Shown in pieces: positions 26,321-57,899 of a stretch of DNA of 61,719 bases (positions within the stretch are counted from its first letter, which is position 1; the number at the start of each line of letters is the position of its first letter). The notes beneath the pieces were generated by a model, which ran no database searches, was not told the origin of the DNA, and saw only the letters and a list, made by a program, of their open reading frames with translations. Source of the stretch: a virus (taxonomy: Duplodnaviria; Caudoviricetes); IMG/VR virus record IMGVR_UViG_3300030389_002537, positions 1-61,719 of that record; one strand, 5' to 3'. The translations under genes and the position numbers were made by a program.

Positions 26321-26573
26321 TGTCGTTTGCAATCATTAGTAGGACCATATATCCAGCACAGTCCATTAGTGTGTCTTCTGTCTCATCATTGAGACCTACA
26401 TTAGCTATTCTTTTTAGCTTGTCGTCAAGTCTTATTCTTATAGCTTCGGACGCTTTAAGGGAAGAAAAAATGCCTACAGGGTTCAAAGCTGAATCCCCGT
26501 AAGCATCGTTTTTCTGTATAAGCAAGTCCTCAATCTCTTGACATTTTAATTTAATTTTGTCTTTTGTGTTCAT
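26199..26573 (-). CDS. DUF1599 / nucleotide-modification-associated domain 1 protein
   Basis: KNDAYGDS..IRLDDKLKRI..DTLMDCAGY motif. Confidence 0.7.
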   Translation of the reverse strand: MNTKDKIKLKCQEIEDLLIQKNDAYGDSALNPVGIFSSLKASEAIRIRLDDKLKRIANVGLNDETEDTLMDCAGYMVLLMIANDNESNNIQECIRQGSATSHTVGDCTISYTRREVSGSDTEGS

Positions 26574-41934: not shown

Positions 41935-42522
41935 ATGAAAACTCTTCACGTTTTTGTCGTTGAGCTTGAGAAGCAAATAAACGACACCATAAAGACCGAC
42001 TCAGGCCTTGAGCTTTTTATAGATACTAGATTTGAAAACGGTCAGTTCCCCAATAGAGTGACATCTGGTCCAGTTGTTTCACCACCTATCAAATATAATA
42101 CAGGTGTAGAGGTTGGCGATGAGTTATACTTTCACCATTTGGTTGTTTTAAATGAAGGTCAAAAACTTACTGGAGAAGACAATCATTTCTTTGTTAATTA
42201 TAGCCCAGACATAGCCCTTCATAATCAAGCTATAGCTTATAAAAGCCAAAAAGATGGTAAGATAAGGTGTCTTGCAGGATGGTGCTTATTAAAGGCTGTA
42301 GAACAGGAAGAAGATGACGATTCTGTTATTGAAGTAGTTTCTTTAAAAGATGACCTACCTACAAAAGGTGAAGTTGCATATTTATGCCAAGAAGGTAAGG
42401 ATATGGGTCTGAAGCCTGGAGATATTGTTGAGTTTGGACAGAATAGAGATTATCGCATAACTATAGACGGTCAGGAATACTATCGAACTCGTGCGGAAGA
42501 TTTATTAGGAGTATATGTCTAA
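41935..42522 (+). CDS. GroES-like co-chaperonin (two tandem GroES-like units)
   Basis: KTDSGLEL..VEVGDELYF and KGEV..LKPGDIVEF..IDGQEYY..EDLLG. Confidence 0.6.
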   Translation: MKTLHVFVVELEKQINDTIKTDSGLELFIDTRFENGQFPNRVTSGPVVSPPIKYNTGVEVGDELYFHHLVVLNEGQKLTGEDNHFFVNYSPDIALHNQAIAYKSQKDGKIRCLAGWCLLKAVEQEEDDDSVIEVVSLKDDLPTKGEVAYLCQEGKDMGLKPGDIVEFGQNRDYRITIDGQEYYRTRAEDLLGVYV

Positions 42523-42814: not shown

Positions 42815-43054
42815 ATGAAGTTATCTAAAAGAAACTATAGAAAAGAATACGATAAGTTTCAAGCATCTCGACAGCAGAAAAAAAATAGAGCAGGAAGGAA
42901 TAAGCGTAGAAGAAGGTTTCTTAAAATGGGTTTAGTAAAAAAAGGTGACGGCAACGACATACATCACAAAGGCGACAAAGTAAAAATAATGAAAGCTTCA
43001 AAAAATAGAGGCATATCTGAAAAGTCTAGATTAAAAGGCTCTACAAGAAAATAA
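42815..43054 (+). CDS. Basic HNH-like protein, possibly degenerate
   Basis: RNYRKEY..KGDGNDIHHK..SKNR motif adjacent to terminase. Confidence 0.55.
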   Translation: MKLSKRNYRKEYDKFQASRQQKKNRAGRNKRRRRFLKMGLVKKGDGNDIHHKGDKVKIMKASKNRGISEKSRLKGSTRK

Positions 43055-43060
43055 ATTAAA

Positions 43061-45175
43061 TTGAACGTATTATTATATACTGAAGAGTATGATGAACCTG
43101 CTATCAAGATTTGCCCCAACGGTTCGGAAGGTGAGATTATCGAACTCGGTGGGCTACTCATTTGCCTTCCAAAAAGGCCGACGAAGAAAAACATTATCGG
43201 ATATAAAGAACCAGACTCTATGCAAATGTGGAGAAGGATATCTATGCCGAAGGAACTGTCTCGTATTCGTTCTATGGATGAGTGGGCAGAAATGCCAAAA
43301 CAGTTTAGAGAGAAGTTTCGTCCATATATCGAGGAAGAGTTTAGGCGTAGGCGTGAGGGTTTTTGGTTTTATAACAACGGTACACCTACATATATTACGG
43401 GGAGGCATTACATGATGCTTCAGTGGAGCAAAATGGATATAGGTTATCCTGACTATCTTGAGTTCCAACATGAAATCTTTCTACACATGGCTGCATGCGA
43501 GGCTGATCCACGTTGCATTGGTCAGCTTTATACTAAGTGCCGTCGTTCTGGGTACACTAATATATGTTCTGCTGTACTTGTTGACGAAGCAACACAAGTT
43601 AAAGACAAGCTGCTCGGCATACAGTCAAAAACTGGTAAGGACGCTCAAGAAAATATTTTCATGAAGAAGGTGGTTTATATGTTCAGAAACTATCCTTTCT
43701 TCTTTAAACCTATACAAGACGGTACAACTAATCCACGTATGGAGCTAGCTTTTAGGGAACCGTCAAAGCGTATTACAAAAAACAACAAAACATCACAAAC
43801 TGGTGAAGCGCTTAACACAGTTATAAACTGGAAAAACACAACTAACAACGCATACGATGGTGAAAAGCTACACATATTGTATTTAGATGAAGCAGGAAAA
43901 TGGGAAAAACCTACAGACATAAGAGACGCATGGAGGATTCAGAGGACTTGTTTGATCGTCGGAAGAAAAATCGTGGGAAAGGCTTTGGTGGGAAGCACGG
44001 TAAATCCGATGAGCAAAGGGGGAAAAGAGTACAAAGAGCTATGGGCGGACTCGAACCCTTTGGAGAGGAACGCGAATGGTAGAACTATAAGCGGGCTATA
44101 TAGATTATTTATACCAGCCCAGCAGGCTATAGAGGGCTTTTTTGATAAATATGGCCAGCCTGTTGTAGGCACACCAAAAGAAGCGGTGGAGGGTATAGAT
44201 GGTGATATGATTTCTATAGGGTCTAGGGAGTATTTAAAAAACGAAAGAGAGAGCCTTAAGCATGATCCTTCAGAACTTAACGAGGTAACTAGGCAATTCC
44301 CTTTTACCACAGACGAAGCCTTCAGGGATAGTATCGAGGGTAGTATATTTAATATAGGTAAGATATATCAGCAGATAGAATATAATGACGAGCTGTTTCC
44401 AAATCCCGTAGTAAAAGGTAACTTTATATGGAAAGAAAAAGATAAAGAGGTTGTATTTAGTCCAGACGTAAACGGTAGATTTAAGATAGCATGGATGCCG
44501 CCAGAATCTCAAAGAAACGTAGTGAGAGTAGATAGAGGTAAAAGGGTACCGCCTTTTTCAGATAGAGGATGCGGTGGTGTGGATAGCTATGATCTTGACG
44601 CTACGCTAGACGGTAGGGGTTCAAAAGGTGCCTTGCATCTTTACAATAAATTTCATATGGAGAATCCATCAAATATGTTTGTTGTTGAGTATGCATCCCG
44701 TCCAGATCTTGCAAAAATATTTTATGAGGATGTTTTGATGTGTGCATTTTTCTATGGGTACCCTATACTAATAGAAAACAACAAGTATGGTATAGCAAGG
44801 CACTTTGAATCAAGAGGTTACGACGGATATCTTATGGATAGGCCTCAACATTTAAAAGGTAGCACAAAGACTGTTTCTGTAAAAACTAAAGGTATACCAT
44901 CAAACTCTCAAGACGTAATACAATCACATGCTCAAGCAATAGAATCGTATATACATGAACACGTTGGTGTAAACTATGAAACAGGAAATATAGGGAATAT
45001 GTACTTCAATGATACACTTGAGGATTGGATAGGATTTAAGATAGACAAAAGAACAAAATTTGACTTAACGATAAGCTCTGGATTAGCTTTGTTGGCTGCT
45101 CAAAAAAGCAAGCCAAAGCCTAAAAGTAACTTTACTGAAAAGCAGTTTTTTAGGAGATATAAGGTAACTGGATGA
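43061..45175 (+). CDS. terL: Terminase large subunit
   Basis: 704 aa; KCRRSGYT, LYLDEAGKW, VGST, nuclease GVDSYD, IENN and FDLTISSG motifs. Confidence 0.9.
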   Translation: MNVLLYTEEYDEPAIKICPNGSEGEIIELGGLLICLPKRPTKKNIIGYKEPDSMQMWRRISMPKELSRIRSMDEWAEMPKQFREKFRPYIEEEFRRRREGFWFYNNGTPTYITGRHYMMLQWSKMDIGYPDYLEFQHEIFLHMAACEADPRCIGQLYTKCRRSGYTNICSAVLVDEATQVKDKLLGIQSKTGKDAQENIFMKKVVYMFRNYPFFFKPIQDGTTNPRMELAFREPSKRITKNNKTSQTGEALNTVINWKNTTNNAYDGEKLHILYLDEAGKWEKPTDIRDAWRIQRTCLIVGRKIVGKALVGSTVNPMSKGGKEYKELWADSNPLERNANGRTISGLYRLFIPAQQAIEGFFDKYGQPVVGTPKEAVEGIDGDMISIGSREYLKNERESLKHDPSELNEVTRQFPFTTDEAFRDSIEGSIFNIGKIYQQIEYNDELFPNPVVKGNFIWKEKDKEVVFSPDVNGRFKIAWMPPESQRNVVRVDRGKRVPPFSDRGCGGVDSYDLDATLDGRGSKGALHLYNKFHMENPSNMFVVEYASRPDLAKIFYEDVLMCAFFYGYPILIENNKYGIARHFESRGYDGYLMDRPQHLKGSTKTVSVKTKGIPSNSQDVIQSHAQAIESYIHEHVGVNYETGNIGNMYFNDTLEDWIGFKIDKRTKFDLTISSGLALLAAQKSKPKPKSNFTEKQFFRRYKVTG

Positions 45176-45180
45176 TTTAC

Positions 45181-45188
45181 TATATTTG
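45181..45188 (+). promoter_or_regulatory. -7 element TATATTTG before the portal gene
   Basis: 6 nt before ATG 45195. Confidence 0.65.
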
Positions 45189-45194
45189 CATAAT

Positions 45195-47606
45195 ATGTAC
45201 GGACAAAATAACGTAAATAAAAAGAACGGTTTTCCCGATCCGTTAGCGGATCAACAAACCAAAGAGTCTGATGCATACGGACTACAGTACGCAAAGGCTA
45301 TTCACGCTCAGTGGGGCGAAATGAACGAGGTGTCTTCTCTGTATGCTAGAAGAAACAAATTGTTTGATAGAAACAGAGATTATTCTAACGGTACTCAGGA
45401 TACAACTATATATAAGCAGCTTTTAAATTCTTTATCACCAAACAAGGGTGACGGAAGTCTTTTAAATTTAGATTACACTCCAGTACCTATACTCCCAAAA
45501 TTTGTAAAAGTAGTCGTAAACAAAACTTTAGCAAGAGATCCATACCCAAATTTAGAATCTATAGATCCATTATCATCTTCTGAGAAGAATAAGAGAAAGG
45601 ATAAGATGAGAATGCAAGTGGAGGCAAAAGAGTTATTGAAGTCTTTGAAAGAAAAAACAGGTGTTGTTCTGGATATGGATCCAGATAATATACCAGACAC
45701 GTTAGAGGAGGCTGAAATATTTATGGATACTAACATTAAGACTGATGCTGAGATAGCTGCTCAGGTCGGGACAAACATGACATTATCCTGGAGTAACTTT
45801 TCTGATACCACATATAGAAGAGCTGTTAACGATATAGTTACACTTGGCATGGGTGTTGTTAAAAGAAGGAATGATCCTAACCAAGGCATATCGATAGAGT
45901 ATGTAGATCCAGCTTCTTTTATACATAGCTACACGGAAGATCCAAATTTTGAGGATTTAGTATATGCAGGAAGTGTAAAGAGAATGTCTATTCAGGAGTT
46001 GAAGAGAATGTCAGCTGGGTCTTTTACCGAAGAGCAATACAAAGAAATAGCAGATAAGGTTAAGAATAAAAGAGGCAACGATGCAAACAAGATGTCTCTA
46101 CAACACTACGACGACCGCCTCAACAGAACAAACTATGGTTATGACGAGTATATGGTTGATGTTTTAGATTTTGAGTTTATATCTGTAGACACCATGTTTT
46201 TTGAAGAAAAAGAAAGTAGACACGGTAATAACGGATTTTACTACAAAGGTTTTTCTTATAAAGAAAAGTCTGGTAGTGTCTTCGAGAGGACTCCTCACAA
46301 GATGGAGATGGCTGTTGTTTATGGAGGCTGCTACATCTTGGAGGCTGACAAGCTTTTTAATTACGGTAGATCTAAGAATGTACCAAAGAACATTCACGAT
46401 ATATCAAAATGCAGACTTTCGTATTCTGTAGCAGCTACCAATATCAGAAGAATGATACCTAAATCTATGGTAGAGAGTTGTTCTGGATTTGCAGATATGC
46501 TACAGCTTACACATCTAAAGATACAGCAAGCGATAGCTAAAGCTAAGCCAGACGGTTTAATTATAGATATTGAAGGTTTAGAGAATGTACAGTTAGGTAA
46601 AGGCGGTGAGTTGCAACCTCTAGAGCTACATGATATATACGAACAGACTGGTGTCTTCTATTACAGAAGTAAAAATCCAGAGGGAGGATTTCAAAACCCA
46701 CCTATACGTGAGATAGGAAATACTATAAGAAACATAAATGAGCTCATAGGTTTGTATAATCACTACATGCAGCTTATTAGAGATACGACGGGTATCAATG
46801 AGGCTATGGATGCTTCTACACCAAAAGGTGATGCTCTTGTAGGTGTTCAGCAGCAAGCAATCAATGCTGGTAATAATGCAATATATGATATCACAAACGC
46901 ATCAATGATGTTGTTTAAGAGGGTTTGTCAGGATGTTGTTAAATGCTTACAGATACTTCCATCGGATTCAGTTCTATACAAGATATATACAAATGCTATA
47001 GGCGAAGAAAACATGAATGTACTTACTTCGTTTAAGGAATTGTCTATGTACAACTTCGGGGTGCATGTTGTTAAGGAGATGGAAGATAAGGATAAAGAAT
47101 ATCTGGAGATGAATATACAGATGGCTATACAGCAGCAACAGATTGATTTAGAAGATGCCATGGCTATAAGAAACATCAAGGATGTTAATCAGGCAGAAAG
47201 GTTGCTTATTATACGTAGAAAAAAGAGAATGCAGGAGCAGCAGCAGATGGCTATGCAGAATTCTCAACAGCAAGCTCAACAAGCTGCAGCGGCTGCAGAA
47301 CAAGCTTCAGCAGCTCGTATGCAAGAATTGCAAGCGCAAGCTCAAATAGACCAGCAAGAGATACAGTTGAAGGGTCAGCTTGAAATGCAGCTAGCTCAGA
47401 TGAGACATGAGTTCAATAAAGAGATTGAAACAATACGAGCTCAGGCTACTCTTGGATTTAAAGAGGATGATCAAAATTTCAAAGAGAAGCTAGATATAAT
47501 GAAGGAGGATAGAAAGGATCAACGTCAAGAGGATAATGCAGAAAATCAAATGAAGATCACACAAATAGCTCAGGGTGAGGAACCAGAGCCACAGCAAATG
47601 ATGTAA
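45195..47606 (+). CDS. Portal protein
   Basis: About 800 aa after terL; LNLDYTPVPILPKFV and IRDTTGINE motifs; Gln-rich C-terminal coiled coil. Confidence 0.85.
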   Translation: MYGQNNVNKKNGFPDPLADQQTKESDAYGLQYAKAIHAQWGEMNEVSSLYARRNKLFDRNRDYSNGTQDTTIYKQLLNSLSPNKGDGSLLNLDYTPVPILPKFVKVVVNKTLARDPYPNLESIDPLSSSEKNKRKDKMRMQVEAKELLKSLKEKTGVVLDMDPDNIPDTLEEAEIFMDTNIKTDAEIAAQVGTNMTLSWSNFSDTTYRRAVNDIVTLGMGVVKRRNDPNQGISIEYVDPASFIHSYTEDPNFEDLVYAGSVKRMSIQELKRMSAGSFTEEQYKEIADKVKNKRGNDANKMSLQHYDDRLNRTNYGYDEYMVDVLDFEFISVDTMFFEEKESRHGNNGFYYKGFSYKEKSGSVFERTPHKMEMAVVYGGCYILEADKLFNYGRSKNVPKNIHDISKCRLSYSVAATNIRRMIPKSMVESCSGFADMLQLTHLKIQQAIAKAKPDGLIIDIEGLENVQLGKGGELQPLELHDIYEQTGVFYYRSKNPEGGFQNPPIREIGNTIRNINELIGLYNHYMQLIRDTTGINEAMDASTPKGDALVGVQQQAINAGNNAIYDITNASMMLFKRVCQDVVKCLQILPSDSVLYKIYTNAIGEENMNVLTSFKELSMYNFGVHVVKEMEDKDKEYLEMNIQMAIQQQQIDLEDAMAIRNIKDVNQAERLLIIRRKKRMQEQQQMAMQNSQQQAQQAAAAAEQASAARMQELQAQAQIDQQEIQLKGQLEMQLAQMRHEFNKEIETIRAQATLGFKEDDQNFKEKLDIMKEDRKDQRQEDNAENQMKITQIAQGEEPEPQQMM

Positions 47607-47607
47607 A

Positions 47608-48036
47608 ATGGCAAAGATAAATTTCGACATATCAAAAAGACTTGACATCACTGTTAAGCGTGGTGATTCTTTTAAATTAGAACTAACACTAAAAGATTCT
47701 AGTGATAATCCTTTAAACCTACATGGTGATACATTTCATTTTGCAGTTGCTGCAGAAAATGGTATTAGAATGGGGACTAACACGGTAGTGCCTCCTCCGA
47801 CCATTGTTACAGATCAAATACTTACAGACGACGAGAGCACAACAGCAGAGACAGCTACAGGTAAAGTTAGGTTTGAGGCTTCAGCAGCTGATTTAAAATT
47901 TAATTTACCAGCAGGAACTCATAGATATGATATACAATATGTAGACGCTAGTGATACTATTGACGGTGAAGGCAATGCTCGAACAATACTTTTTGGAAAC
48001 TTTATTGTTAAAGACGATTTTAGTATTCTTCTGTAA
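47608..48036 (+). CDS. Ig-like / BppU-like structural protein
   Basis: KRGDSFKLELTLKD..YDIQY..ILFGNFIV motif. Confidence 0.55.
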   Translation: MAKINFDISKRLDITVKRGDSFKLELTLKDSSDNPLNLHGDTFHFAVAAENGIRMGTNTVVPPPTIVTDQILTDDESTTAETATGKVRFEASAADLKFNLPAGTHRYDIQYVDASDTIDGEGNARTILFGNFIVKDDFSILL

Positions 48037-48194
48037 TGAGTATTACAATAAATACATCTACAAGCAGTATGGATATAACAGAGCCTGTTGTAGTGACTAC
48101 AAAAGTTACTGAATCTTCTGTTATAACAACTACAGCTACACATCCTACAAAACTTAATATAGAGGTTACACTTAATTCAAGATCATTAAGATGA
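48036..48194 (+). CDS. Thr-rich 52-aa protein (not in ORF track)
   Basis: MSITINTSTSS...; TAATG and ATGA overlaps at its ends. Confidence 0.55.
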   Translation: MSITINTSTSSMDITEPVVVTTKVTESSVITTTATHPTKLNIEVTLNSRSLR

Positions 48195-50395
48195 GATATA
48201 TACTATCCGCTTTATTTTTTATGCCTACGTTTCTTTTATCTCAAGGAAGTTGGCTTGATGTTCAGGTTCAAACAGATCAATACGCTGGAGAAAGCTCCTG
48301 GAAAATACTTAGTGATTCAAATATTGTAGCCACCAGCTTCCCTCTTCAAAACAACACTTTACAAAACCAAATGGTATTTTTGCCCTCTGGTGATTATGAT
48401 TTTGTGATGATGGATGCTTTTGGTGATGGGATATGTTGTCAATTTGGAGAGGGTTGGTATAGAATAAGCAATAATTGTGGATTAGACACAGCGGTGTATG
48501 ATTTTGACTCAGCTGTAGACACTATACCTTTTACACTCAATCCATGTATGCCACCTCTTCCTGGATGCACCAATCCTGTTGCTAACAACTACAATCCGTG
48601 GGCTAATATTGATAACGGAAGTTGCAATGTATTTGAGTGCGATTCTACAGAGACTTTGGTTTCTATGGACCTTACGCTAGATACATGGCCTGGAGAAACT
48701 GGATTCACATTAGTTGATATAGCTACTGGTGATTTTTATGATCAAGTGATACCTGGTGAGTTTGATTTTGGGGATCAACTTGCTACATATACTTATAACT
48801 TCTGTGTTAGCTTAGGGTTTGAATTAATATTAGTAGATGAGTTTGGTGACGGACTAAACGGTTATGCGTCAGGCGGTCAGGATGGGGCTTGTGTTATTAC
48901 AGCCTGTGACAGTGTATTATGGGAGCTAGAAGACCTAGCATTTACTACGTTTGACGACGGTAATACAATGTACTCTGGGGCTATATTTACAGAGCCGTGT
49001 CCCCCAGCACCGCCCATTTACGGGTGTATGGATGATGATTATGTAGACTATAATCCAGAGGCTGAGTTGCCAGATACTTGTGAAACGCTACATACCTGGG
49101 GTTGTACAGATCCAGAAGCTTTAAACTACGATAGCACTGCAACAATATCAGACCTTGTAGGCCCATGTAGCATACAGATTATCCTTGAGGATGACGCAGC
49201 TGACGGATGGGGTAATTCTACTATAGGTATGGTGCAGGGTGAGCAACAGTGGATGTTTACTGTAGGACCTGGTGAGTTTTCTCAGTCGTGGAATATCACT
49301 TTAGACTCTGACGAAGAGGTTGATATATATTACTTCCAAGCTGGTAATCAACAGCAATCGTCTCAAGAGCTTGCCTTCCAAACACTACATAACTCAGTGT
49401 ATGTCCTTAATGAAGCTGGAGATACTTTGCTGTCTGAGGGAAGTAATCCATTTATAAACAACGGGCAGGGAGCTCTTCAACCATTTACTGGACCTAACTG
49501 GACGGTGTATCATTTTACTCCTTTTTGTGGAGATGGGTGTATACCTTATGTGTATGGATGTACTGATGAAACTTCATGTAACTACAATCCTGAAGCCAAC
49601 ACAAACTCTGACTGTAACTATCCAGTCCAGTATTACGATTGTGATAATAGCTGCATTAATGATGATGATAGTGACGGAGTATGTAATGAGCTGGAAGTTG
49701 TAGGCTGCCAAGATCCGACCGCTTTCAATTATAATGCACTAGCAACAGATGCAGGCGATTGCATCCCAGTTATCTTTGGCTGTACTGATCCTACGCAATT
49801 TAACTACAACCCAGAAGCTAATACAGAAAACGGAGGGTGTATACCTTATGTATATGGCTGTATGAATCCATATGCGTTTAATTACAATCCAGATGCTAAC
49901 ACAGAATTAGAAGACTCGTGTATTGAAGTGTTAGTTGACTGCATGGACCCTGATGCGTTTAATTACAACGAGTTAGCAAACACTCCTGATGAAAATCTTT
50001 GTCTGTATGATGCTGGGTGTATCACAGGCCCTGGAGAGCCTTATTGGTTAAACGACGGGTGTTACGCATGGATCATAGATATTGACCCATATTGCTGTGA
50101 GGTTGCATGGGATGAAACGTGCGTAGATCTTTACTCATACTGCGAGCAAGGATGGCCGCAAGGAGTGCTAGAAACAACAAGAGATATAACTATATATCCT
50201 AACCCTGCAAGCATGATCTTAAATGTGCAGGCCCCCGTAGAGGCTATTACAAGCCTATATAACGCATTTGGACAGCTTGTAGTGGTTGGGACTACAGACA
50301 AGACAATAGACCTCTCACAGCTCTCTAATGGAGTGTATGAGGTTGTAATAGAATATAATGGAATAATTATTAACAAGAAAATTATAAAATCATGA
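48191..50395 (+). CDS. Cys-rich secreted protein with type IX secretion (T9SS) type A C-terminal sorting domain
   Basis: N-terminal signal peptide; 8 GC(T/M/Q)DxxAxNYNPxA-type repeats; C-terminal IYPNP..LYNAFGQ..IDLSQLSNGVY..KKIIK. Confidence 0.85.
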   Translation: MRYILSALFFMPTFLLSQGSWLDVQVQTDQYAGESSWKILSDSNIVATSFPLQNNTLQNQMVFLPSGDYDFVMMDAFGDGICCQFGEGWYRISNNCGLDTAVYDFDSAVDTIPFTLNPCMPPLPGCTNPVANNYNPWANIDNGSCNVFECDSTETLVSMDLTLDTWPGETGFTLVDIATGDFYDQVIPGEFDFGDQLATYTYNFCVSLGFELILVDEFGDGLNGYASGGQDGACVITACDSVLWELEDLAFTTFDDGNTMYSGAIFTEPCPPAPPIYGCMDDDYVDYNPEAELPDTCETLHTWGCTDPEALNYDSTATISDLVGPCSIQIILEDDAADGWGNSTIGMVQGEQQWMFTVGPGEFSQSWNITLDSDEEVDIYYFQAGNQQQSSQELAFQTLHNSVYVLNEAGDTLLSEGSNPFINNGQGALQPFTGPNWTVYHFTPFCGDGCIPYVYGCTDETSCNYNPEANTNSDCNYPVQYYDCDNSCINDDDSDGVCNELEVVGCQDPTAFNYNALATDAGDCIPVIFGCTDPTQFNYNPEANTENGGCIPYVYGCMNPYAFNYNPDANTELEDSCIEVLVDCMDPDAFNYNELANTPDENLCLYDAGCITGPGEPYWLNDGCYAWIIDIDPYCCEVAWDETCVDLYSYCEQGWPQGVLETTRDITIYPNPASMILNVQAPVEAITSLYNAFGQLVVVGTTDKTIDLSQLSNGVYEVVIEYNGIIINKKIIKS

Positions 50396-50580
50396 AAGTG
50401 AATTGGATAAACAGTTGGAACTCTTATAACAAAAAAGAGAAGTATGAGTTAAACTTTAGATTAGGCACAGTAAGCGTGCTTGAAATTTCGTTTTGCCCAT
50501 GCCCAGCATGCGACAAGAAAAAGAAAAAGGCATGCCCAAGATTTAGATTTATGATACTCAACTTTGGATTTGAATTCTAA
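50392..50580 (+). CDS. 62-aa protein with CPCPAC motif
   Basis: Coupled at both ends; ends MILNFGFEF. Confidence 0.6.
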   Translation: MKVNWINSWNSYNKKEKYELNFRLGTVSVLEISFCPCPACDKKKKKACPRFRFMILNFGFEF

Positions 50581-51653
50581 TGACAAAGAAAAAAGATTTA
50601 ACTGTATTTGTCTATGCCTTGATCATGATCGTGGCCTTTATATTAGGCACCACTCTTGAAGCAAAAGGACAAACTCTAAAGAAAACATTTAAGTATGCTA
50701 CATTCTATACTGCTTTTAGTGGTGGTAACTCTGTGGCTGACGACAACATCTATTCCGTGACGAATGGTTTACAGACTGATATTGTTGAAACTCCTTTTGA
50801 TTATTCTATTACAGCTGGTGTTCGTAAGATCGCTAGATTTGGATACGAAAACAGGGCTAATGTTTTTTATGACGGTACAGAAAAATCTTACAGTGATGCA
50901 GCAAACATCGGTAAAGTAAAAGGTTTTGAGTTTTTGTTTGAGGCTGACTGGCGTAGACAACAAGGTAGAAACTTTTTAGATCAAGACTATTTCTTACGAT
51001 ATGTAGCAAAAAATTGGATAGCTAAGGTTGAATACCTGCAGGATGGTTTTGCAGATGTACAATACTTCGAGGGGTCTCAGCGATTAAGACTTAACATAAA
51101 CGACCGCCTCAGTTTTAACATTGGTGTTGCTCAACGTATATCAGAACCTTACGGCTATGATGCTTTAGAAGAGTGGGTGTTGTTAAACAACAATATACAC
51201 TACACAAGCCTCGCTCTACAAGAAGGGTATACCGTAGACGTACAAGGTGGTGAATACTTTGCTCCAGATGGCACGCTCGTAGCTAACAGTGTTGATGTTT
51301 GGGAGCAAGTTATTATACCTCAAGTTATTGACGACTACGTAGCTAGGAAGAGAAGTGAGCTTCCTAATGTTTGGAACTATTCTTTAGTAGTTGGGTATGA
51401 TTACTATAAGTATTCTAAAGAGTTTTGGGTGCATAGTTGGGCTAGTGTGATGCCGTACCACCTTAAGACTGACGATGAGTTTTCTTACTTCGAAACCACT
51501 GAAGGGGGGCAATGGATAGATTACGGTGCAGGCCTTATCTTTGGGTGGAGATTAAACAAGAGTCTTGGTGTATTCTTAGAGGGTAAATACAATAAGTATT
51601 GGAATCGAGAATGGCACGATTTCTCTGTCGGACTAAACTATGTGATATTGTAA
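50580..51653 (+). CDS. Putative outer-membrane beta-barrel protein
   Basis: Signal peptide; aromatic-rich amphipathic strands; C-terminal DFSVGLNYVIL. Confidence 0.65.
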   Translation: MTKKKDLTVFVYALIMIVAFILGTTLEAKGQTLKKTFKYATFYTAFSGGNSVADDNIYSVTNGLQTDIVETPFDYSITAGVRKIARFGYENRANVFYDGTEKSYSDAANIGKVKGFEFLFEADWRRQQGRNFLDQDYFLRYVAKNWIAKVEYLQDGFADVQYFEGSQRLRLNINDRLSFNIGVAQRISEPYGYDALEEWVLLNNNIHYTSLALQEGYTVDVQGGEYFAPDGTLVANSVDVWEQVIIPQVIDDYVARKRSELPNVWNYSLVVGYDYYKYSKEFWVHSWASVMPYHLKTDDEFSYFETTEGGQWIDYGAGLIFGWRLNKSLGVFLEGKYNKYWNREWHDFSVGLNYVIL

Positions 51654-51937
51654 TGGCTAAACAAATTGGAGAAGATACTAAAGTAACACTAGACCTAAAA
51701 ACAATAGGGATGGGTATAGCAGGGCTAGCAGCCCTTATTGGGATGTGGTTTGCTCTTCAAGCAGACATCGCTTTAGCCATGGAGTTACCAGAGCCAGCAG
51801 ATCCAGAGATTACACGCATGGAGTTTGATATGAAGGACCAGCTAGTACGTCAAACAATTATGACAACTCAAGAAGATGTGTCAGAGCTGAAAGAGGACCT
51901 GGACCGCATCGAAGAAAAAATAGATAAACTACAATGA
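51653..51937 (+). CDS. Single-pass membrane protein with C-terminal coiled coil
   Basis: ATG 51653 (TAATG overlap); TM IGMGIAGLAALIGMWFAL; heptad repeats VSELKEDLDRIEEKIDKL. Confidence 0.7.
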   Translation: MAKQIGEDTKVTLDLKTIGMGIAGLAALIGMWFALQADIALAMELPEPADPEITRMEFDMKDQLVRQTIMTTQEDVSELKEDLDRIEEKIDKLQ

Positions 51938-52272
51938 ATAACTTAATCTACATATGTTTGTTTGCAATTACATCTCTTAGTATGGGTATACCAGATTCAG
52001 GAGTATGTGTTGTTGAGTTTAACGCTAGTTTTAACTCTGCTAACAGTGTAGGTTGGATTGATGAGCTTAGCGACTGTAAAGGCAAGAGGGTAGATATAGC
52101 TGCTGAGCCAGAGCTACAAAAAGAACATAAAATTGTGGTAGTGCCAACTGTAATTATATTTAATGAAGGAGAAGAAGTAAAACGATTTCAAGGCAACATT
52201 ATGATGCAACTTGAGGCAACTCAAGATGAAGTGCAAGAGGCGGTCGATGAAATTATAATGAGTGACTTCTAA
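51934..52272 (+). CDS. Exported thioredoxin-fold protein lacking CXXC
   Basis: Signal-like N-terminus; VVEFNASFN, VDI, IVVVPTVIIFNEGEEVKRFQG. Confidence 0.65.
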   Translation: MNNLIYICLFAITSLSMGIPDSGVCVVEFNASFNSANSVGWIDELSDCKGKRVDIAAEPELQKEHKIVVVPTVIIFNEGEEVKRFQGNIMMQLEATQDEVQEAVDEIIMSDF

Positions 52273-52598
52273 TGAAGGTTTGCAAGCATGGATGTAAGAG
52301 TATGCGCAAGGGCGGTAAGATGCCCAAAAAGTTTTCTGTAAAAAGTGGAGACAAGTCTCCTTCTGGCGGATTAACAGCAAAAGGTGTTAGGCGTTATCGT
52401 GCTGCAAATCCAGGGAGCAAATTAAAGACAGCTGTTACAACAAAACCGTCAAAACTAAAGAAGGGTAGTAAGGCGGCTAAACGTAGAAAATCTTTCTGCG
52501 CAAGAATGAGTGGAATGAAGAAAAGGTTAACCAGTGCTAAGACAGCTAGAGATCCAAACTCTAGAATAAATAAAGCGCTTAGAAAATGGAATTGTTAA
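52272..52598 (+). CDS. Small basic phage protein
   Basis: GGLTAKG..NPGSKLKTAV..RRKSFCARM..ALRKWNC motif. Confidence 0.7.
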   Translation: MKVCKHGCKSMRKGGKMPKKFSVKSGDKSPSGGLTAKGVRRYRAANPGSKLKTAVTTKPSKLKKGSKAAKRRKSFCARMSGMKKRLTSAKTARDPNSRINKALRKWNC

Positions 52599-52599
52599 T

Positions 52600-52779
52600 A
52601 TGAAGGCCGTAAAGAAAAAATTAAAGATATCTAACAAAAAGGTATCTGTAGACCCACCAAAAGGTTATCACTGGATGGAGGAGTCTGGTAGATATTACCT
52701 TATGAAAGGAGATTATGCACCGCATCCTGGTGCGGTAGAAAAAGCACAGTTTAAATTATCTAATCATGCCAAGAGTTAA
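52600..52779 (+). CDS. 59-aa basic protein (not in ORF track)
   Basis: MKAVKKKLK...PPKGYHWM... Confidence 0.6.
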   Translation: MKAVKKKLKISNKKVSVDPPKGYHWMEESGRYYLMKGDYAPHPGAVEKAQFKLSNHAKS

Positions 52780-52948
52780 GAAGGTAAAGAAAAAGAAAAT
52801 ACGCTATAAAAAAGGCGGTACGGTAAAGGACGCTTGTTACCACAAGGTAAAGCGTGGCGAGAAAGTATTTCCAAGTGCATACGCTAGCGGAAGAATAGCT
52901 AAGTGTAGAAAAATGGGGGCTGCCAATTACGGGAAGAGTAAAAAATAA
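52766..52948 (+). CDS. Small basic phage protein
   Basis: DACYHKVK..FPSAYASG..KCRK motif. Confidence 0.65.
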   Translation: MPRVKKVKKKKIRYKKGGTVKDACYHKVKRGEKVFPSAYASGRIAKCRKMGAANYGKSKK

Positions 52949-53199
52949 TGGCGGTACGCAAAACAGCAAAAGGGTTAGCGCTAAAGCGCTGGTTCAAAGA
53001 AAAGTGGAGAACCCCTAGAGGAAAGAAGGGGTATAGTGGAAAGGATAGAACCTTCCGCCCTACTGTTCGCGTGTCATCAAAAACCCCAGCCACATGGTCA
53101 GAACTAACGCCACATGAAAAAGCAAGGGCTGCTAAAGAAAAGCGTACAAAAGGCAGGGTGTCTAGATACAAAATCGTCAAAAAAAAGAAACGTAAATAA
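52948..53199 (+). CDS. Small basic phage protein
   Basis: LKRWFKEKW..RPTVRVSSKTP motif. Confidence 0.65.
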   Translation: MAVRKTAKGLALKRWFKEKWRTPRGKKGYSGKDRTFRPTVRVSSKTPATWSELTPHEKARAAKEKRTKGRVSRYKIVKKKKRK

Positions 53200-53203
53200 T
53201 AAC

Positions 53204-53211
53204 TATATTTG
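53204..53211 (+). promoter_or_regulatory. -7 element TATATTTG upstream of the head operon
   Basis: Intergenic consensus match. Confidence 0.65.
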
Positions 53212-53229
53212 CATAAATAACTATTAATT

Positions 53230-53625
53230 ATGGCAACAACAACCGCAACATTAACATTATCGAGCGCAGACTTAACAGGTGACGCTCTATCGTTGTCTAC
53301 AACGGCAACACTAACTAAAGCTGGTACAGTAACTGGATTAGATCAATTTACTGGAATAGCTAGAAAAACATTTTCGTCTACATCTCAGGTAACACTTATT
53401 GCTAAAGCTGATTACACTGATGACAGAGCACATAAAGTGTACTTAAAAAATACTAGCACTGTAGCTACAGAAAATCTCATTGTAACTATTGAGTCTCAGC
53501 TTCTTGGAAGGCTTTACGCTGGTGATTGGGCTTTACTCCCATTTAACGGAGATCAAGATATTAAAATTACTCCTAGCGTTGCCACAGCAATGACTGTTGA
53601 GTATGCTGTAATTTACGAAGCATAA
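53230..53625 (+). CDS. Putative structural / decoration protein
   Basis: 131 aa, beta-rich; paralog-like to the next gene. Confidence 0.6.
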   Translation: MATTTATLTLSSADLTGDALSLSTTATLTKAGTVTGLDQFTGIARKTFSSTSQVTLIAKADYTDDRAHKVYLKNTSTVATENLIVTIESQLLGRLYAGDWALLPFNGDQDIKITPSVATAMTVEYAVIYEA

Positions 53626-54044
53626 TGGGTTTACTCCGAGGCGCACTTACATTAACAAGTTCGGATGTGTTAAGCATCCCAATTAACCTTAACGTCGATG
53701 CATCATTTAGTGCAGATGGTGGGTCTATTGGTCGTGCCAAGGTTTTACAAACAGGCGTGCATAACAACGCTTTAGACCTGTATGTTGCAAACGACAAGCT
53801 AATTACGGCTTATCTATATGCTAAGAATCTAGAGACTGAGAAAGAAAACTTTATGTATATCTACAATAACGCTGGCTCAAACGATGTTGTTGCTAAGTTA
53901 GGCGGTGGTGAGTTTTGTTTTATCCCTGTTGCGGCGGATCAAAACTTAAAGTGTTACGGCACAAGAGTAGATAGTATTATTGAATTTGCTGTATTTGGAC
54001 TAGATAGCTCAGCGGCAGGACCATTCATCGGATCAGGAGACTAA
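53625..54044 (+). CDS. Putative structural / decoration protein
   Basis: 139 aa; LTLTSSD, YAKNL and LGGGEFCFIP align with the previous gene. Confidence 0.6.
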   Translation: MGLLRGALTLTSSDVLSIPINLNVDASFSADGGSIGRAKVLQTGVHNNALDLYVANDKLITAYLYAKNLETEKENFMYIYNNAGSNDVVAKLGGGEFCFIPVAADQNLKCYGTRVDSIIEFAVFGLDSSAAGPFIGSGD

Positions 54045-54057
54045 TAAAAATAAAGAT

Positions 54058-54435
54058 ATGAACGCACACAATCAACTACCAACTAATATATATGCTATAA
54101 GCGCAACAACAACTGACGTAAGCGCTACTCCAGTAAGGGGTAAGTTTTTTGCAATTACATGCTCAGTTGCTGGAACAGTTAAGGTAAAGGGTGCTGATAT
54201 ATTTCAGTATGTAGATGTAAGCGATTCTTCTAGTGTTCACACTGGATTTATAGATCAGGGAACGGGCGCTGCTTTTGCTGACGATGCTACTATGAACTCT
54301 GCTGGCGATGGGTTTTTTGAAACCTTAAGCACTAGCGAGGTTGACCTTGTTATGATTGCTGGTCAGACTATATACGGAAGATTCGATAGCGTAAAGAGTG
54401 ATGGAACATTCACTGGATTTGCGTATGCTGGATAA
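54058..54435 (+). CDS. Putative structural protein
   Basis: 125 aa; AGQTIYGRF motif. Confidence 0.55.
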   Translation: MNAHNQLPTNIYAISATTTDVSATPVRGKFFAITCSVAGTVKVKGADIFQYVDVSDSSSVHTGFIDQGTGAAFADDATMNSAGDGFFETLSTSEVDLVMIAGQTIYGRFDSVKSDGTFTGFAYAG

Positions 54436-54456
54436 TAAAATAATAATTAAAATATA

Positions 54457-55560
54457 ATGGAAAACGCTTCAATAGAAAAAATGGAGATCATGGATACTCC
54501 TGAGCAGCTTGCTGCCTCAATGCAACAAGAACCAACCCCAACAACACAAGAGGCTCCTCAACAGGAGTCTCAACCAGTTGAACAGGTTAATACACCAGAG
54601 GTAACGCCAGAGCCGACACAACAGGCTCAAACGGCACCGCCTCCAACACAAGAAACAACTGCACAACCAGAAACGGTTGAGCAACTACAATACTCAGACG
54701 ATCAGATAGAGACGGCTGTCCTTGACTACATGAGCGAAAGGCTTGGTACGGACATTAATTCTTTTGATGATTTTTATGGGGATGAGCAGGAGCAATCACC
54801 TCTTGACGAGAGAGTTGCGGCGATAGCAGAATTTGTCGAAACGACAGGTAGATCGCCACAAGATTGGTTTAAGTATCAGTCATTAAATCCGTCCGAAATG
54901 AACGATTTAACAGCCGTAAAGGTTGACATGGCTGCAAAGTACCCAAACCTATCAAGCGAAGAAGTAAACTTACTCGTAAAGAATCAGTACAAGTTTGACA
55001 CCGAAACACACGGTGCTGAGCAGGTACAACTATCGCAACTGCAACTTAAAATAGATGCTGAGAATGCACGTAAAAACATTTCGGAGATTCGTGAAAAATA
55101 CAAAGCTCCAAATGTGCAGGCTCCAGCAGATTCATTTATTACCGACGACTGGGTTAACGAAATGACTGACGAGGTTAACGATTTGACTGGATTGCAATTC
55201 GATCTAGGCAATGACAAAACCTTTACGTTTACGATTGACGATAACTACAAGTCTGAGTTAATAGATAAAAATACAAGATTAGAGGAATACTTTGATCCAT
55301 TTGTGCGCCAGGATGGTACATGGGACTTTGATGCACTCTCATCGCATAGAGCCGTTGTTGACAACATCGACCAAATCGTAAGCGCAGCTTACAGACAAGG
55401 TGTAGGTGATGGTCAGAAAGGCTTAGTTGAGAAAGCAGCCAATGTATCAACCGCTTCTCCACAACAGGGTACAAACTCGACACCGAGTGCAAATCCACTG
55501 GCGGAGCAGGTGAAGCAGATTATGAGTCAAAATTCTTCTAAGATGACTTTTAAACTATAA
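54457..55560 (+). CDS. Putative capsid scaffolding protein
   Basis: Acidic, with a Q/E/P/T low-complexity N-terminus; immediately upstream of the major capsid gene. Confidence 0.6.
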   Translation: MENASIEKMEIMDTPEQLAASMQQEPTPTTQEAPQQESQPVEQVNTPEVTPEPTQQAQTAPPPTQETTAQPETVEQLQYSDDQIETAVLDYMSERLGTDINSFDDFYGDEQEQSPLDERVAAIAEFVETTGRSPQDWFKYQSLNPSEMNDLTAVKVDMAAKYPNLSSEEVNLLVKNQYKFDTETHGAEQVQLSQLQLKIDAENARKNISEIREKYKAPNVQAPADSFITDDWVNEMTDEVNDLTGLQFDLGNDKTFTFTIDDNYKSELIDKNTRLEEYFDPFVRQDGTWDFDALSSHRAVVDNIDQIVSAAYRQGVGDGQKGLVEKAANVSTASPQQGTNSTPSANPLAEQVKQIMSQNSSKMTFKL

Positions 55561-55575
55561 AAATTATAAGAAAAA

Positions 55576-57009
55576 ATGGCTACTATACCAAGTACAACTG
55601 TTGATATAGCAGGACATGAGATCTTAACGAGCCCGCAAAAATATGCGGCTATCGGTGATCTTTTGAACGCTGCTGCATCAGGAGTTAATGAAGTCGGTAA
55701 ACCCGACGTAAGTGATATGCTGGTTGAAACATACGGAGACCAAGGTATCACTGGATTTTTAAAGATGACAGGAGCAATCACTGCTGCTGGATCTTCTGAC
55801 CAAGTAGAATTCTACGAAGTTGGTCGTCGTCACAAAGTGTTAGCTTACGGAAGCAACATTAACATTGCTTCTAACGAAATTAACCTGCCTCAAGCAGACT
55901 TAACATACGTTACAGGAGCATCAGGCGCTGTATCAACTCCAACAGGAGCTGTACTAGAGGCTGGTGATATCGTAATGGATAAAGTTACAGGTGTACGTTT
56001 AATCCTTAAGGACTTTAATACTACAGCTGCTAACGACTACACATTCATTCGTTTAGATGGTGAAAACGCTTCAGGTACTAATGAAGTTGACACATCTTCT
56101 GGTGGTGAGTTTATCCACATCGGTAACATGTTCGCTCAGGGAACTGATCAACCTACAAACTTTATCCAACCAGATGTTATCCGTAGAATCAATTCTTACG
56201 CTATTGTAAAGGATCGTTTCGAGGTTGCTGGATCTCAAGCTACAAACGTAGGGTATGTAAACATTGGAAACGGTGACTACCGTTGGTTTATGTACGGAGA
56301 GATGGAAGCACGTAAGCGCTTTATGGACCGTCGTGAGATGACTCTTCTATTCGGTGAGTTAAACGATGGATCTAATGACTTTGGTGGTGCAGGATCTGAG
56401 GGTTACATTACAGCTCTTGAGTCTCGTGGTATCCAAATCACAAATGCTAACTCTAACCCAATGGATAGCTTCTCTGAGTTTGATGATCTTATTCTTGAGC
56501 TTGATAAGCAGGGAGCGCCTTCTGAGTACGCTATGTACTTAAACAGAAAGCAGGATCTTGCTATCGATGACATGCTAGCTACTGGTATCGCTACTGGTGT
56601 TACTGCAGGTCTTCCTGGTCAGTTTGGTGCATTCAATAACGATTCTGATATGGCTGTAAAGCTTGGCTTTAAGTCGTTCACTCGTGCTGGATACACATTC
56701 CACAAGCATGACTGGAAGCTTCTTAACGATCCTACTCTTGTTGGTGCTTCTACTAAGTTCCAGGGTGTTATGGTACCTCTTGCTAACGTAGCTGACGCTC
56801 GTTCAGGCATGAAGTCACCAGCTCTTGAGATGAAGTACAAGGCTGCTAACGGGTACTCTCGTGAAATGGAGCACTGGGTAACAGGCGGTGGTGTGTTAGG
56901 TCACACAAACAATGGAGGTACAGGTAAGGACGTTGCTACGTTCCACTACCGTTCTGAAGTTTGTTTATTAACTCGTGCTGCTAACCAACACGTTCTTCTT
57001 AAGGGTTAA
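55576..57009 (+). CDS. Major capsid protein
   Basis: 477 aa; high-expression codon bias (CGT, GGT, TTC, AAC); LGFKSF..YTFHKHDWKLLND and HYRSE motifs. Confidence 0.85.
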   Translation: MATIPSTTVDIAGHEILTSPQKYAAIGDLLNAAASGVNEVGKPDVSDMLVETYGDQGITGFLKMTGAITAAGSSDQVEFYEVGRRHKVLAYGSNINIASNEINLPQADLTYVTGASGAVSTPTGAVLEAGDIVMDKVTGVRLILKDFNTTAANDYTFIRLDGENASGTNEVDTSSGGEFIHIGNMFAQGTDQPTNFIQPDVIRRINSYAIVKDRFEVAGSQATNVGYVNIGNGDYRWFMYGEMEARKRFMDRREMTLLFGELNDGSNDFGGAGSEGYITALESRGIQITNANSNPMDSFSEFDDLILELDKQGAPSEYAMYLNRKQDLAIDDMLATGIATGVTAGLPGQFGAFNNDSDMAVKLGFKSFTRAGYTFHKHDWKLLNDPTLVGASTKFQGVMVPLANVADARSGMKSPALEMKYKAANGYSREMEHWVTGGGVLGHTNNGGTGKDVATFHYRSEVCLLTRAANQHVLLKG

Positions 57010-57044
57010 TCGTTGATTGTCTAACTATTAAAACTTAGGAAAAC

Positions 57045-57518
57045 ATGGCTACATTCAAATACGGACCAGGAGCAGTTACAGCTGCAAAAAGAGTTACAGC
57101 AACAGATGTATTTACTCAAAATGCTGACGGCGCAATCATAGAAGTTACCCAGCCTGCTGGAACAATTCTAAGAGAAGTTATCGTTAGGTTTACAAATACA
57201 TCTACGCATGGATCTTCTAGTCAAGTAGGCTACGAGCTAGGAACCGCTTCAAGTGGTGCTCAGCTCGGAACCAACGTCGACGGATTTCTTGATGCGGGCA
57301 CTTCAATACCTGAAAATACAGTATACTTACTGAATACAGGTACGGGAAATGCTGCTGCTGATTTTCTTTCAGAAAGCGAAGTGGATACAACTCCAGCTGC
57401 TGCAGTAGGATATACAGACGATGAAAGAAGTATATTCTTGACTTTTTTACACAGCGATCACGCTGTTACTGTTAACTCAAATGTTGAGGTAAACTTTGTG
57501 TTTACTCATCTGAACTAA
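57045..57518 (+). CDS. Putative capsid decoration protein
   Basis: 157 aa between the capsid gene and its terminator; QPAGTIL motif. Confidence 0.55.
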   Translation: MATFKYGPGAVTAAKRVTATDVFTQNADGAIIEVTQPAGTILREVIVRFTNTSTHGSSSQVGYELGTASSGAQLGTNVDGFLDAGTSIPENTVYLLNTGTGNAAADFLSESEVDTTPAAAVGYTDDERSIFLTFLHSDHAVTVNSNVEVNFVFTHLN

Positions 57519-57536
57519 TAGTGTACTAACTACAAG

Positions 57537-57559
57537 AAAGGGGCTTCGGCCCCTTTTTT
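57537..57559 (+). terminator. Rho-independent terminator
   Basis: GGGGC-TTCG-GCCCC followed by T6. Confidence 0.9.
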
Positions 57560-57566
57560 ATTTTCG

Positions 57567-57574
57567 TATATTTG
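57567..57574 (+). promoter_or_regulatory. -7 element TATATTTG, 4 nt before ATG
   Basis: TTTTCGTATATTTGTC is identical to the context at 12-27. Confidence 0.75.
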
Positions 57575-57578
57575 TCAT

Positions 57579-57899
57579 ATGCTTAAATACTTGTTTTTTC
57601 AAAACGGTACCGATGACTCCGCTCTAATGCCAGCAGCAGATCTTATTGACATGGAAATAAGCGCCGACGGAACCGATTTGACTGTATCGTTTAGTAGCTT
57701 ATTACAAACTGAAGGTGTAAATTACTCTATAGTGCTTTCTATAACAGAAGATACAGGTAGGCAGGTTATGTCTGAGATTGCTGATGAAATAGCGTTTGGT
57801 GATAACCCATTTATAACAATAGCTGATGAGGCAAATAGCGAGTTTATACATCCTGACATAACAGCTATAGAAACAACATTAGACGGAAGCTTTCAATAA
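57579..57899 (+). CDS. Acidic structural protein (stand-alone shared domain)
   Basis: 106 aa; KYLFF start shared with the ORFs at 57899 and 59333. Confidence 0.6.
   Translation: MLKYLFFQNGTDDSALMPAADLIDMEISADGTDLTVSFSSLLQTEGVNYSIVLSITEDTGRQVMSEIADEIAFGDNPFITIADEANSEFIHPDITAIETTLDGSFQ

Follow-up and report, generated by a model that had tools for sequence, protein, structure and literature searches.

The complete 61.7-kb virus record IMGVR_UViG_3300030389_002537, analysed here over its whole length of 61,719 nucleotides (the window), probably derives from an uncultured marine phage with a host in the phylum Bacteroidota and carries a block of five genes of which three are present together in hundreds of viral contigs, namely those of a predicted outer-membrane beta-barrel of 357 amino acids (aa), of a 94-aa bitopic membrane protein and of a 112-aa thioredoxin-like protein. 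We tentatively propose that this trio serves the outer-membrane step of host lysis in a spanin-like manner, with the barrel replacing the lipoprotein, and we prefer this reading to the three others weighed below. The description of the genes, of their domains and of their co-occurrence we regard as very well founded.

An earlier note on the same DNA had described the block as an envelope cassette encoding a type IX secretion system (T9SS) cargo together with proteins of the host envelope. All five open reading frames (ORFs) were found where it had placed them, on the plus strand (48191-52272) between the portal and the scaffold/capsid genes, and joined by ATGA or TAATG overlaps, again as described (Table 1). 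Packing is equally tight on both flanks (from the portal gene to 47608, from 47608 to 48036, from 48036 to 48191, and from 52272 onward), so that the limits of the block cannot be read from the overlaps. The export or membrane signals attributed to four of the five products were recovered as hydrophobic N-termini by hydropathy and inspection, the 62-aa protein being the one without such an N-terminus by hydropathy. In Elemovirus and ctfjg026, two distant relatives, the portal gene is followed by the scaffold and capsid genes with nothing between them, and in the window an insertion of about 6.8 kb (47608-54435), made up of small genes, stands at this place. For the capsid protein, identity to its counterparts in Flavobacterium elemoviruses, Cellulophaga podophages and one uncultured podovirus is 28-31%.

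Table 1 Positions of the features discussed, in the window unless a sister-clade locus is named.
Feature	Positions	Strand	Basis or remark
Portal gene	45186-47606		Upstream flank of the block
734-aa ORF, T9SS type A cargo	48191-50395	+	ORF call, hidden Markov models (HMMs)
T9SS type A C-terminal sorting domain	50192-50386	+	PF18962, 42.5 bits; inside the cargo gene
62-aa ORF, facultative passenger	50392-50580	+	ORF call
357-aa ORF, predicted outer-membrane beta-barrel	50580-51653	+	ORF call, AlphaFold2 (AF2) fold comparison
94-aa ORF, bitopic membrane protein	51653-51937	+	ORF call, hydropathy
112-aa ORF, thioredoxin-like, predicted exported	51934-52272	+	ORF call, profile against PDB
Scaffold/major capsid genes	54457-57009		Downstream flank of the block
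145-aa holin	20563-21000	+	phrog_3427, E 1.2e-22; late-operon end
DUF5675 protein	39428-39949	+	PF18925, 97.4 bits
Sister-clade secreted protein, examples	L088:8056-8775, L121:8028-8798, L131:6707-7402

With the barrel as query, 477 IMG/VR contigs proved to encode a relative, and 80 loci were kept for analysis. Homologues of the barrel, the 94-aa and the 112-aa proteins occur in that order in 72 of the 80, which bears out the co-occurrence in relatives on which the earlier note had made its reading depend, and a full barrel ORF is present in 76. An ORF bearing the C-terminal sorting domain (CTD) of T9SS cargo ends no more than 600 bp upstream of the barrel in 72 of these 76 loci; among the four without it, three are cut by the end of the locus and one is rearranged. 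The five-gene arrangement is not a product of chance. The 62-aa gene, which had been counted as a member of the cassette, proved not to be a fixed one, being found in 42 of the 80 loci, and its homologues lie detached from the barrel in two loci of the sister clade described below, L100 and L121; its product contains cysteine, has no export signal and matched no family in Pfam, NCBIfam or PHROG.

In 40 of the 80 loci the module has the portal/scaffold position that it holds in the window, and in 22 it comes directly after a homologue of the window's holin gene, where it stands at the end of the late operon, ahead of divergent replication genes; the remaining loci comprise 14 that are unplaced and four without a full barrel ORF. 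The existence of two alternative sites in a backbone that is otherwise the same indicates that four genes (cargo, barrel, 94-aa and 112-aa) move as a unit, and the window is a clear case of such a move, from the holin site to the portal/scaffold site. A description of the loci without portal and capsid matches as unrelated backbones was rejected, since the backbone is the same and the module lies elsewhere in it. Conservation is unevenly spread: median identity to the proteins of the window was 82% for the 94-aa protein, 80% for both the barrel and the terminase, 70% for the thioredoxin-like protein, 68% for the portal, 58% for the capsid, 50% for the scaffold and 48% for the cargo. Cargo proteins only 38-41% identical stand beside barrels that are 91-95% identical (L004, L006, L008, L009, L012), from which we conclude that the trio stays constant and the cargo's N-terminal part is swapped. 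In 63 of the 72 loci of this clade the 94-aa gene abuts the 112-aa gene (gap of no more than 60 bp). The pair can lie 1-3.5 kb from the barrel, with other genes between.

A link to lysis genes is also seen in a sister clade, reached via a barrel representative about 33% identical to that of the window (96 viral contigs, 80 loci kept), in which profiles of the trio proteins found the barrel in 79 of the 80 loci and the full trio in 65. The usual order in this clade is barrel, a secreted cysteine-rich protein of 180-256 aa, often a small protein with two transmembrane (TM) segments, the 94-aa and the 112-aa proteins, endolysin and holin. The endolysin is of the Peptidase_M15_3 type (about 60 bits; phrog_894, E 1e-30 to 1e-33), the holin is phrog_3427, and the small two-TM protein weakly matches the holin phrog_9987. 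Among the 65 trio loci, 59 have an endolysin-type gene no more than 3 kb from the trio (in 31 the two abut), and 41 have a holin within the same distance. Every one of the 65 carries the secreted protein and has the genes of the 94-aa and the 112-aa protein abutting one another, a pair that in this clade lies immediately upstream of endolysin and holin. A T9SS sorting domain was found in none of the 80 loci with an in-house CTD profile, perhaps too narrow as it was built from the first clade, and PF18962 matched none of five whole records, two of them rated 100% complete. The trio, and not the cargo, is therefore the conserved core, and the earlier view of the cassette as one unit built around a T9SS cargo does not hold, given that the sister clade keeps the trio without a sorting domain.

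A relationship between the sister-clade secreted protein and the cargo was considered and rejected, because hhalign aligned only their signal peptides (probability 44%). The tail of the secreted protein (YNLxGQ...GxYIxxGKxK) recalls the last strands of a T9SS CTD, without HMM support, and its N-terminal NDGWxDCVDxSDE, also without HMM support, presumably resembles an LDL-receptor class A calcium site. Between proteins of this family an acidic repeat region (DT-I/V-x-E-I/V-EY-V) varies in length.

The 145-aa holin of the window has a hydrophobic segment at about aa 80-107 by hydropathy and a second one near the C-terminus by eye. No Peptidase_M15_3 domain was found in the window. The DUF5675 protein is a candidate cell-wall enzyme by position only: its homologues in the sister clade fill the places beside the trio that are held in other loci by Peptidase_M15_3 endolysins. 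Its assignment as the endolysin was dropped, as it has no sequence relative in PDB and no similarity to the M15 enzyme of Elemovirus.

The identification of the 50580 product as an outer-membrane beta-barrel, made in the earlier note, was borne out at moderate confidence by its AF2 model (pLDDT 64.8, pTM 0.60), which consists of long antiparallel hairpins. All matches listed by Foldseek against pdb at E no higher than 1e-4 were outer-membrane barrels or assemblies of them, with low TM scores (0.23-0.37). In VIA-align the closest fold was the nucleoside channel Tsx (Z 13.0, root-mean-square deviation (rmsd) 3.6, 187 residues aligned), and the matches listed also included the EstA barrel (12.6), KdgM (11.5), NanC and NalP (both 11.3) and AaaA (11.1). 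We regard the protein, with moderate confidence, as a barrel of 12 to 14 strands. Its signal peptide was read, by hydropathy and inspection, as ending AKG|Q, and its C-terminus, taken as a beta-signal, is ...NYVIL in the window and ...FNYLIF in the sister clade. An insert at aa 189-263, about 75 residues long, is conserved, with invariant residues across aa 190-261; strand parity in the model would put it on the cell-surface side. A candidate catalytic Ser/His pair (S268, H285), suggested by residue conservation, was dropped; judged by strand position, the two would stand at opposite ends of neighbouring strands.

By sequence the barrel stands apart from described families. It gave no match in Pfam, NCBIfam or PDB, the last also with the family profile, and none of 25 family members had a consistent Pfam match, although 326 representative clusters in a library of 1.8 billion proteins were reached at E no higher than 1e-3, down to about 25% identity. 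PorP/SprF (PF11751) was not matched at E up to 1 in a six-frame search of the window, nor in hmmscan, and no PorP or PorV fold was among the listed structure matches. The cyanophage family Phage_OMP (PF24653) likewise had no match at E up to 1 in the window; that it is a language-model neighbour of the barrel (0.94) is a lead only. Matches in BFVD, a collection of predicted viral structures, were generic barrels, except for one unnamed protein of 342 aa (A0A516LKJ4; E 2.3e-22, 23% identity).

The 94-aa protein begins with 17 residues that precede a single hydrophobic segment (about aa 18-37); after this come an ELPEP linker and a helix-prone, acidic tail, whose net charge is -10 and in which residues 55-76 are almost wholly invariant. 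Its length is counted from an ATG; an alternative TTG start at 51599 would give 112 aa. The arrangement suggests a type II topology, with the N-terminus in and the C-terminus out. For the 112-aa product of the gene at 51934, the thioredoxin-like character claimed for it was upheld by a family profile that matched 148 PDB sequences at E up to 1; all 60 listed matches were thioredoxins or engineered thioredoxin-like proteins, the best with E 1.4e-5. The single sequence scored 22.3 bits with Pfam Thioredoxin (PF00085), just under the cut-off of 23.5. The CxxC redox site is absent, FNASFN standing at the WCxxC position in all 22 aligned homologues, and the protein is accordingly a redox-inactive member of the thioredoxin fold. 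Two cysteines are conserved, C25 nearly invariant and C48 invariant, and the hydrophobic N-terminus may act as an uncleaved signal anchor in this clade, the protein of the sister clade perhaps being released.

In the arrangement that we infer, the trio would have its part in the closing phase of infection, at the outer-membrane step of lysis, and would put one phage protein in each envelope layer. The 94-aa protein would take the part of the i-spanin, the barrel, assembled by the beta-barrel assembly machinery (BAM), would stand in the place of the o-spanin lipoprotein, and a role as connector or chaperone in the periplasm would fall to the thioredoxin-like protein, all three being in contact with one another. 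Use of the host BAM had been proposed in the earlier note, with remodelling of the surface of the infected cell as its purpose, both of which may apply. The same note had listed an unusual spanin substitute among several possible roles; gene context supports this role best of those listed.

The setting among lysis genes and the two invariable partners of the barrel argue for this role in lysis. Like the two-component spanins (lambda Rz/Rz1; Kongari et al. 2018, passages of PMC6139136), the trio would comprise an inner-membrane protein of plausible type II topology, with a presumably helical part in the periplasm, and an outer-membrane partner, encoded by adjacent genes which, here in the relatives, lie by holin and endolysin, and together the products would cover all envelope layers. 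It differs in that a barrel of about 330 residues, and not a small lipoprotein with a lipobox, is the outer-membrane partner, in its extra thioredoxin-like periplasmic protein, in an inner-membrane protein without cysteine and in its high conservation. No ORF of at least 30 aa in any frame of the window matched the lipobox pattern, nor did any ORF in any frame of a complete 28.8-kb sister-clade genome. A hydropathy scan of that genome flagged six ORFs. Three belong to its lysis cluster (thioredoxin-like protein, holin and small two-TM protein), in which the barrel gene and that of the secreted protein also lie, both products being judged exported by their N-termini; the others were a reverse-strand ORF over the 94-aa gene, a 181-aa ORF beside the barrel and a 571-aa ORF about 8 kb away. 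According to passages of PMC6139136, no spanin was found in about 13% of genomes, including those of Bacteroides and Croceibacter phages, and the possibility is raised there that "an OMP could act as an o-spanin", OMP being an outer-membrane protein; for Bacteroidetes phages, only unimolecular spanins are reported in the parts of a 2025 survey considered here (PMC12596118).

Several observations weigh against a role in lysis. Non-lysis accessory genes, such as lambda bor, can adjoin lysis cassettes and also gather there, so that adjacency alone is weak evidence, and the class that we call endolysin-type comprises M15, phrog_3000/phrog_33083-type and DUF5675 homologues, the function of DUF5675 and of phrog_3000 being unproven. 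In the window itself the module lies 27 kb from the holin gene and 8 kb from the DUF5675 gene. Neither by sequence nor by profile does the trio resemble any known spanin or lysis family; the 94-aa protein in particular has no PDB sequence match and only weak PHROG matches, to which no function is assigned there, and its periplasmic part of about 57 residues is short to bridge the periplasm unless the partners add to it. The barrel model is of only moderate confidence, with its N-terminal third poorly modelled. Intermolecular disulfides are argued to be general in two-component spanins (passages of PMC6139136), and none of 21 aligned homologues of the 94-aa protein contains a cysteine; spanins are also described there as extremely diverse, and the trio is unusually conserved (94-aa protein 82% and barrel 80%, against 58% for the capsid and 68% for the portal). 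Finally, the barrel always has a secreted protein as its neighbour, be it the cargo or another, an arrangement that fits an anchoring or display role equally well.

Assignment of the 734-aa protein as a type A cargo of the T9SS, advanced in the earlier note from its C-terminal YPNP...GQ...GVY...KKIIK domain, was confirmed: the domain is present, two HMMs scored above their curated cut-offs (TIGR04183, 35.8 bits against 23; Pfam Por_Secre_tail, PF18962, 36.6 bits against 27), and the fold matched as well. In a six-frame search it was the sole PF18962 domain in the window. VIA-align superposed the CTD on that of RgpB (5ag9_B; Z 9.2, rmsd 1.7 Å, 65 residues aligned), of NucA (8glk_D; Z 8.3) and, more broadly, on the translocon-bound CTDs of NucA, RemZ, RemA and FspA (8glk_D, 8gl8_D, 8gl6_D, 8glj_D; Z 7.5-8.3) and on those of mirolase and of the PorZ entry 5m11 (its residues 686-775; Z 7.9-8.2), and Foldseek aligned it with 8glk_D (TMt 0.75, 29% identity). 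In the AF2 model (pLDDT 69.4, pTM 0.27; CTD pLDDT about 66-85) beta-sandwich domains occupy about aa 19-116, 155-266 and 325-442, and the CTD aa 664-734; the arrangement of the domains is unreliable because of the low pTM. The N-terminus is hydrophobic (11-aa Kyte-Doolittle maximum 1.92) and ends LLS|Q. Outside the CTD only generic C2, FN3 or Ig arrays were matched, and Foldseek and VIA-align detected no enzyme fold, although single domains of so long a model may escape. For the first domain there is one weak match, to a calcium-dependent carbohydrate-binding module (Z 7.0 with 2xhh_A), to be taken as a lead only.

The cargo also holds cysteine-rich CxDxxAxNYNxxA mini-repeats, and many of its cysteines are invariant among relatives, as expected for an exported protein. 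Its N-terminal part is hypervariable among relatives (30-98% identity, median 48%), and its sole match in deposited phages was a 43-residue cysteine repeat in Synechococcus phage S-CAM3. An infected Bacteroidota cell would export the protein via Sec and its own T9SS, and the cargo, next to the barrel, would be an exchangeable addition peculiar to its clade.

Surface display or anchoring, with the barrel as cognate outer-membrane anchor or shuttle for the adjoining secreted protein, is the main rival to a role in lysis and does not exclude it; we consider it rather unlikely. The resulting change of the cell surface would serve superinfection exclusion, masking of receptors, so that fewer progeny are lost on debris, or adhesion. 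Such a function is favoured by the constant adjacency of the barrel and a secreted protein that is rich in cysteine and bears repeats (this clade, 72 of 76 loci; sister clade, all 65 trio loci) and by the swapping of cargo heads in otherwise near-identical modules, a behaviour to be expected of a protein engaged in surface interactions and in agreement with the variability of T9SS cargo genes in 'Cryophage' (passages of PMC7468147). The barrel fold, being closest to Tsx and to 12-stranded autotransporter translocators that hold a passenger (EstA, NalP, AaaA), and the resemblance of cargo domain 1 to a carbohydrate-binding module, again as a lead only, point the same way. Display does not, however, explain the constant company of the 94-aa and 112-aa proteins or the holin/endolysin setting in the sister clade; the presumed surface insert of the barrel is conserved and not variable, the secreted proteins of the two clades are unrelated beyond the signal peptide, and there is no sequence match to PorP/SprF. 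Moreover, type A CTD cargo has no known need of a private barrel.

The two small proteins might instead govern lysis timing, acting on the holin as antiholin or periplasmic sensor, for which T4 RI is the model, with the barrel and the secreted proteins as unrelated neighbours. The abutment of their genes (63 of 72 and 65 of 65 loci), their separability from the barrel by 1-3.5 kb and their place directly upstream of endolysin and holin in the sister clade would suit such a function, which we nevertheless hold to be improbable: every locus with the pair also has the barrel, in unchanged order, the pair lies far from the holin in the window, and neither protein resembles known antiholins. That the barrel is a Tsx-like porin importing nucleosides or nutrients during infection is very improbable, for although Tsx is its best structural match (Z 13.0) and phage porin-like proteins are common in BFVD, unrelated 12-stranded barrels come within about 1-2 Z units of Tsx, the gene lies in late or lysis operons and not among early or metabolic genes, and the two partner proteins are left unexplained.

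A host among the Bacteroidota is probable from the T9SS domain together with the residue that follows the signal peptides, a Gln directly after the predicted cleavage site being known as the 'Bacteroidetes Q rule' (quoted in PMC10367356). This pattern was present in the barrel in 64 of 76 cases in this clade and in 77 of 79 in the sister clade, in which it also marked all 65 thioredoxin-like proteins and all 76 secreted proteins, compared with 135 of 1,621 other ORFs taken as control. The thioredoxin-like protein of this clade (3 of 72) is an exception.

The trio is confined to phages. Among genomes representing 185,579 species, one genome per species, barrel homologues were found in only six loci (L166-L171), all in metagenome-assembled genomes (MAGs), whose contigs are labelled Nitrosopelagicus (an archaeon), Rickettsiales, Parvibaculum, Sphingobacteriales, Flavobacteriales and, for one, unclassified. 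As these labels are mutually inconsistent, the six are most likely phage contigs binned into wrong genomes. The three nearest protein-atlas clusters were 100% viral, and none of 30 feature-search matches came with a common Pfam family. Deposited phages gave no match either, whether 50,697 records were searched by tblastn with the barrel of the window, one of the sister clade and one representative of 40% identity, or deposited phage records by megablast with positions 43000-58000, and no viral locus was found for a distant barrel representative (P0075). The trio is nevertheless very common in marine metagenomes: clusters (90% identity) with the thioredoxin-like protein number at least 6,927 and those with the cargo at least 5,120, these counts being lower bounds since only 8,000 candidates were scored per search.

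Among T9SS loci, the closest parallel is the SprB-SprF pairing, in which a cargo gene stands beside a PorP/SprF-like barrel gene, a pairing described for type B CTDs. In both cases the gene of a T9SS substrate adjoins that of an outer-membrane barrel; the cargo of the window is of type A, and its neighbouring barrel has no PF11751 match and finds its best folds in Tsx, KdgM/NanC and autotransporter translocators. Phages are known to encode barrels destined for the host outer membrane, lambda Lom being a phage-encoded outer-membrane protein, and in this the barrel of the window resembles Lom, PF24653 and entries so annotated in BFVD, none of which is described with two partner proteins or in a lysis cassette.

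Phage-encoded type A cargo is itself already known, from 'Cryophage' (Bellas et al. 2020, PMC7468147) and from crAss-like cluster 2 contigs (de Jonge et al. 2019, PMC6949934). In the passages of these papers considered here, the cargo genes share with that of the window the type A sorting domain, high variability between phage variants and a location near head or structural genes; the 'Cryophage' cargo has recognisable enzyme or PA14 domains, whereas no enzyme fold was detected in ours, and the same passages make no mention of the barrel, membrane and thioredoxin-like proteins alongside the cargo. The statement of the earlier note that no such phage system had been characterised is correct, although phage-encoded T9SS cargo genes had been published (PMC7468147, PMC6949934). 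No published description of the trio or of a barrel-based spanin was found, supplements and subscription journals lying outside the search.

How Bacteroidota phages open the outer membrane is largely unknown, surveys reporting, in the passages at hand, spanin-less or only unimolecular cases (PMC6139136, PMC12596118). A role of the trio in lysis, if true, would provide a concrete example of an outer-membrane protein acting as o-spanin and a marker set with which to annotate lysis cassettes in thousands of ocean phage genomes. Going further, and with more doubt, one may see in the trio a third kind of outer-membrane disruption device, besides lipoprotein spanins and disruptin-type peptides, which would use a BAM-assembled integral barrel, be employed by a very abundant group of Bacteroidota phages of the ocean and, in one clade, couple a swappable T9SS-exported binding protein on the surface of the dying cell to the opening of that cell. 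The hypervariable cargo, for its part, offers a large natural series for studying why phages have their hosts secrete a protein late in infection.

Directly 3' of the module, in the stretch 52272-53199, lies the gene of a DUF6321 protein (70.6 bits), whose PHROG matches are the C-termini of much larger phage proteins. It is followed within that stretch by three small, strongly basic proteins of 59, 60 and 83 aa, with homologues in only some related loci, and then, just 5' of the scaffold gene (53230-54435), by proteins of 131, 139 and 125 aa that belong to no PHROG family; homologues of the 139-aa protein adjoin the lysis region in the sister-clade loci L088 and L100. Elsewhere in the late operon are two giant ORFs of 2,082 aa (1606-7854) and 2,900 aa (11868-20570), the second of which ends at the holin gene and has only its C-terminal third detectably similar in related loci (24-48% identity). 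Just upstream of the terminase, a 195-aa protein (41935-42522) carries a C-terminal Cpn10/GroES domain (30.6 bits), and Elemovirus has an annotated co-chaperonin in the equivalent place. The divergent early block on the minus strand opens with a ribonucleotide reductase (21385-23277; phrog_367, E 2e-132) and includes a primase/helicase (24518-26332; phrog_18375, E 2e-186).

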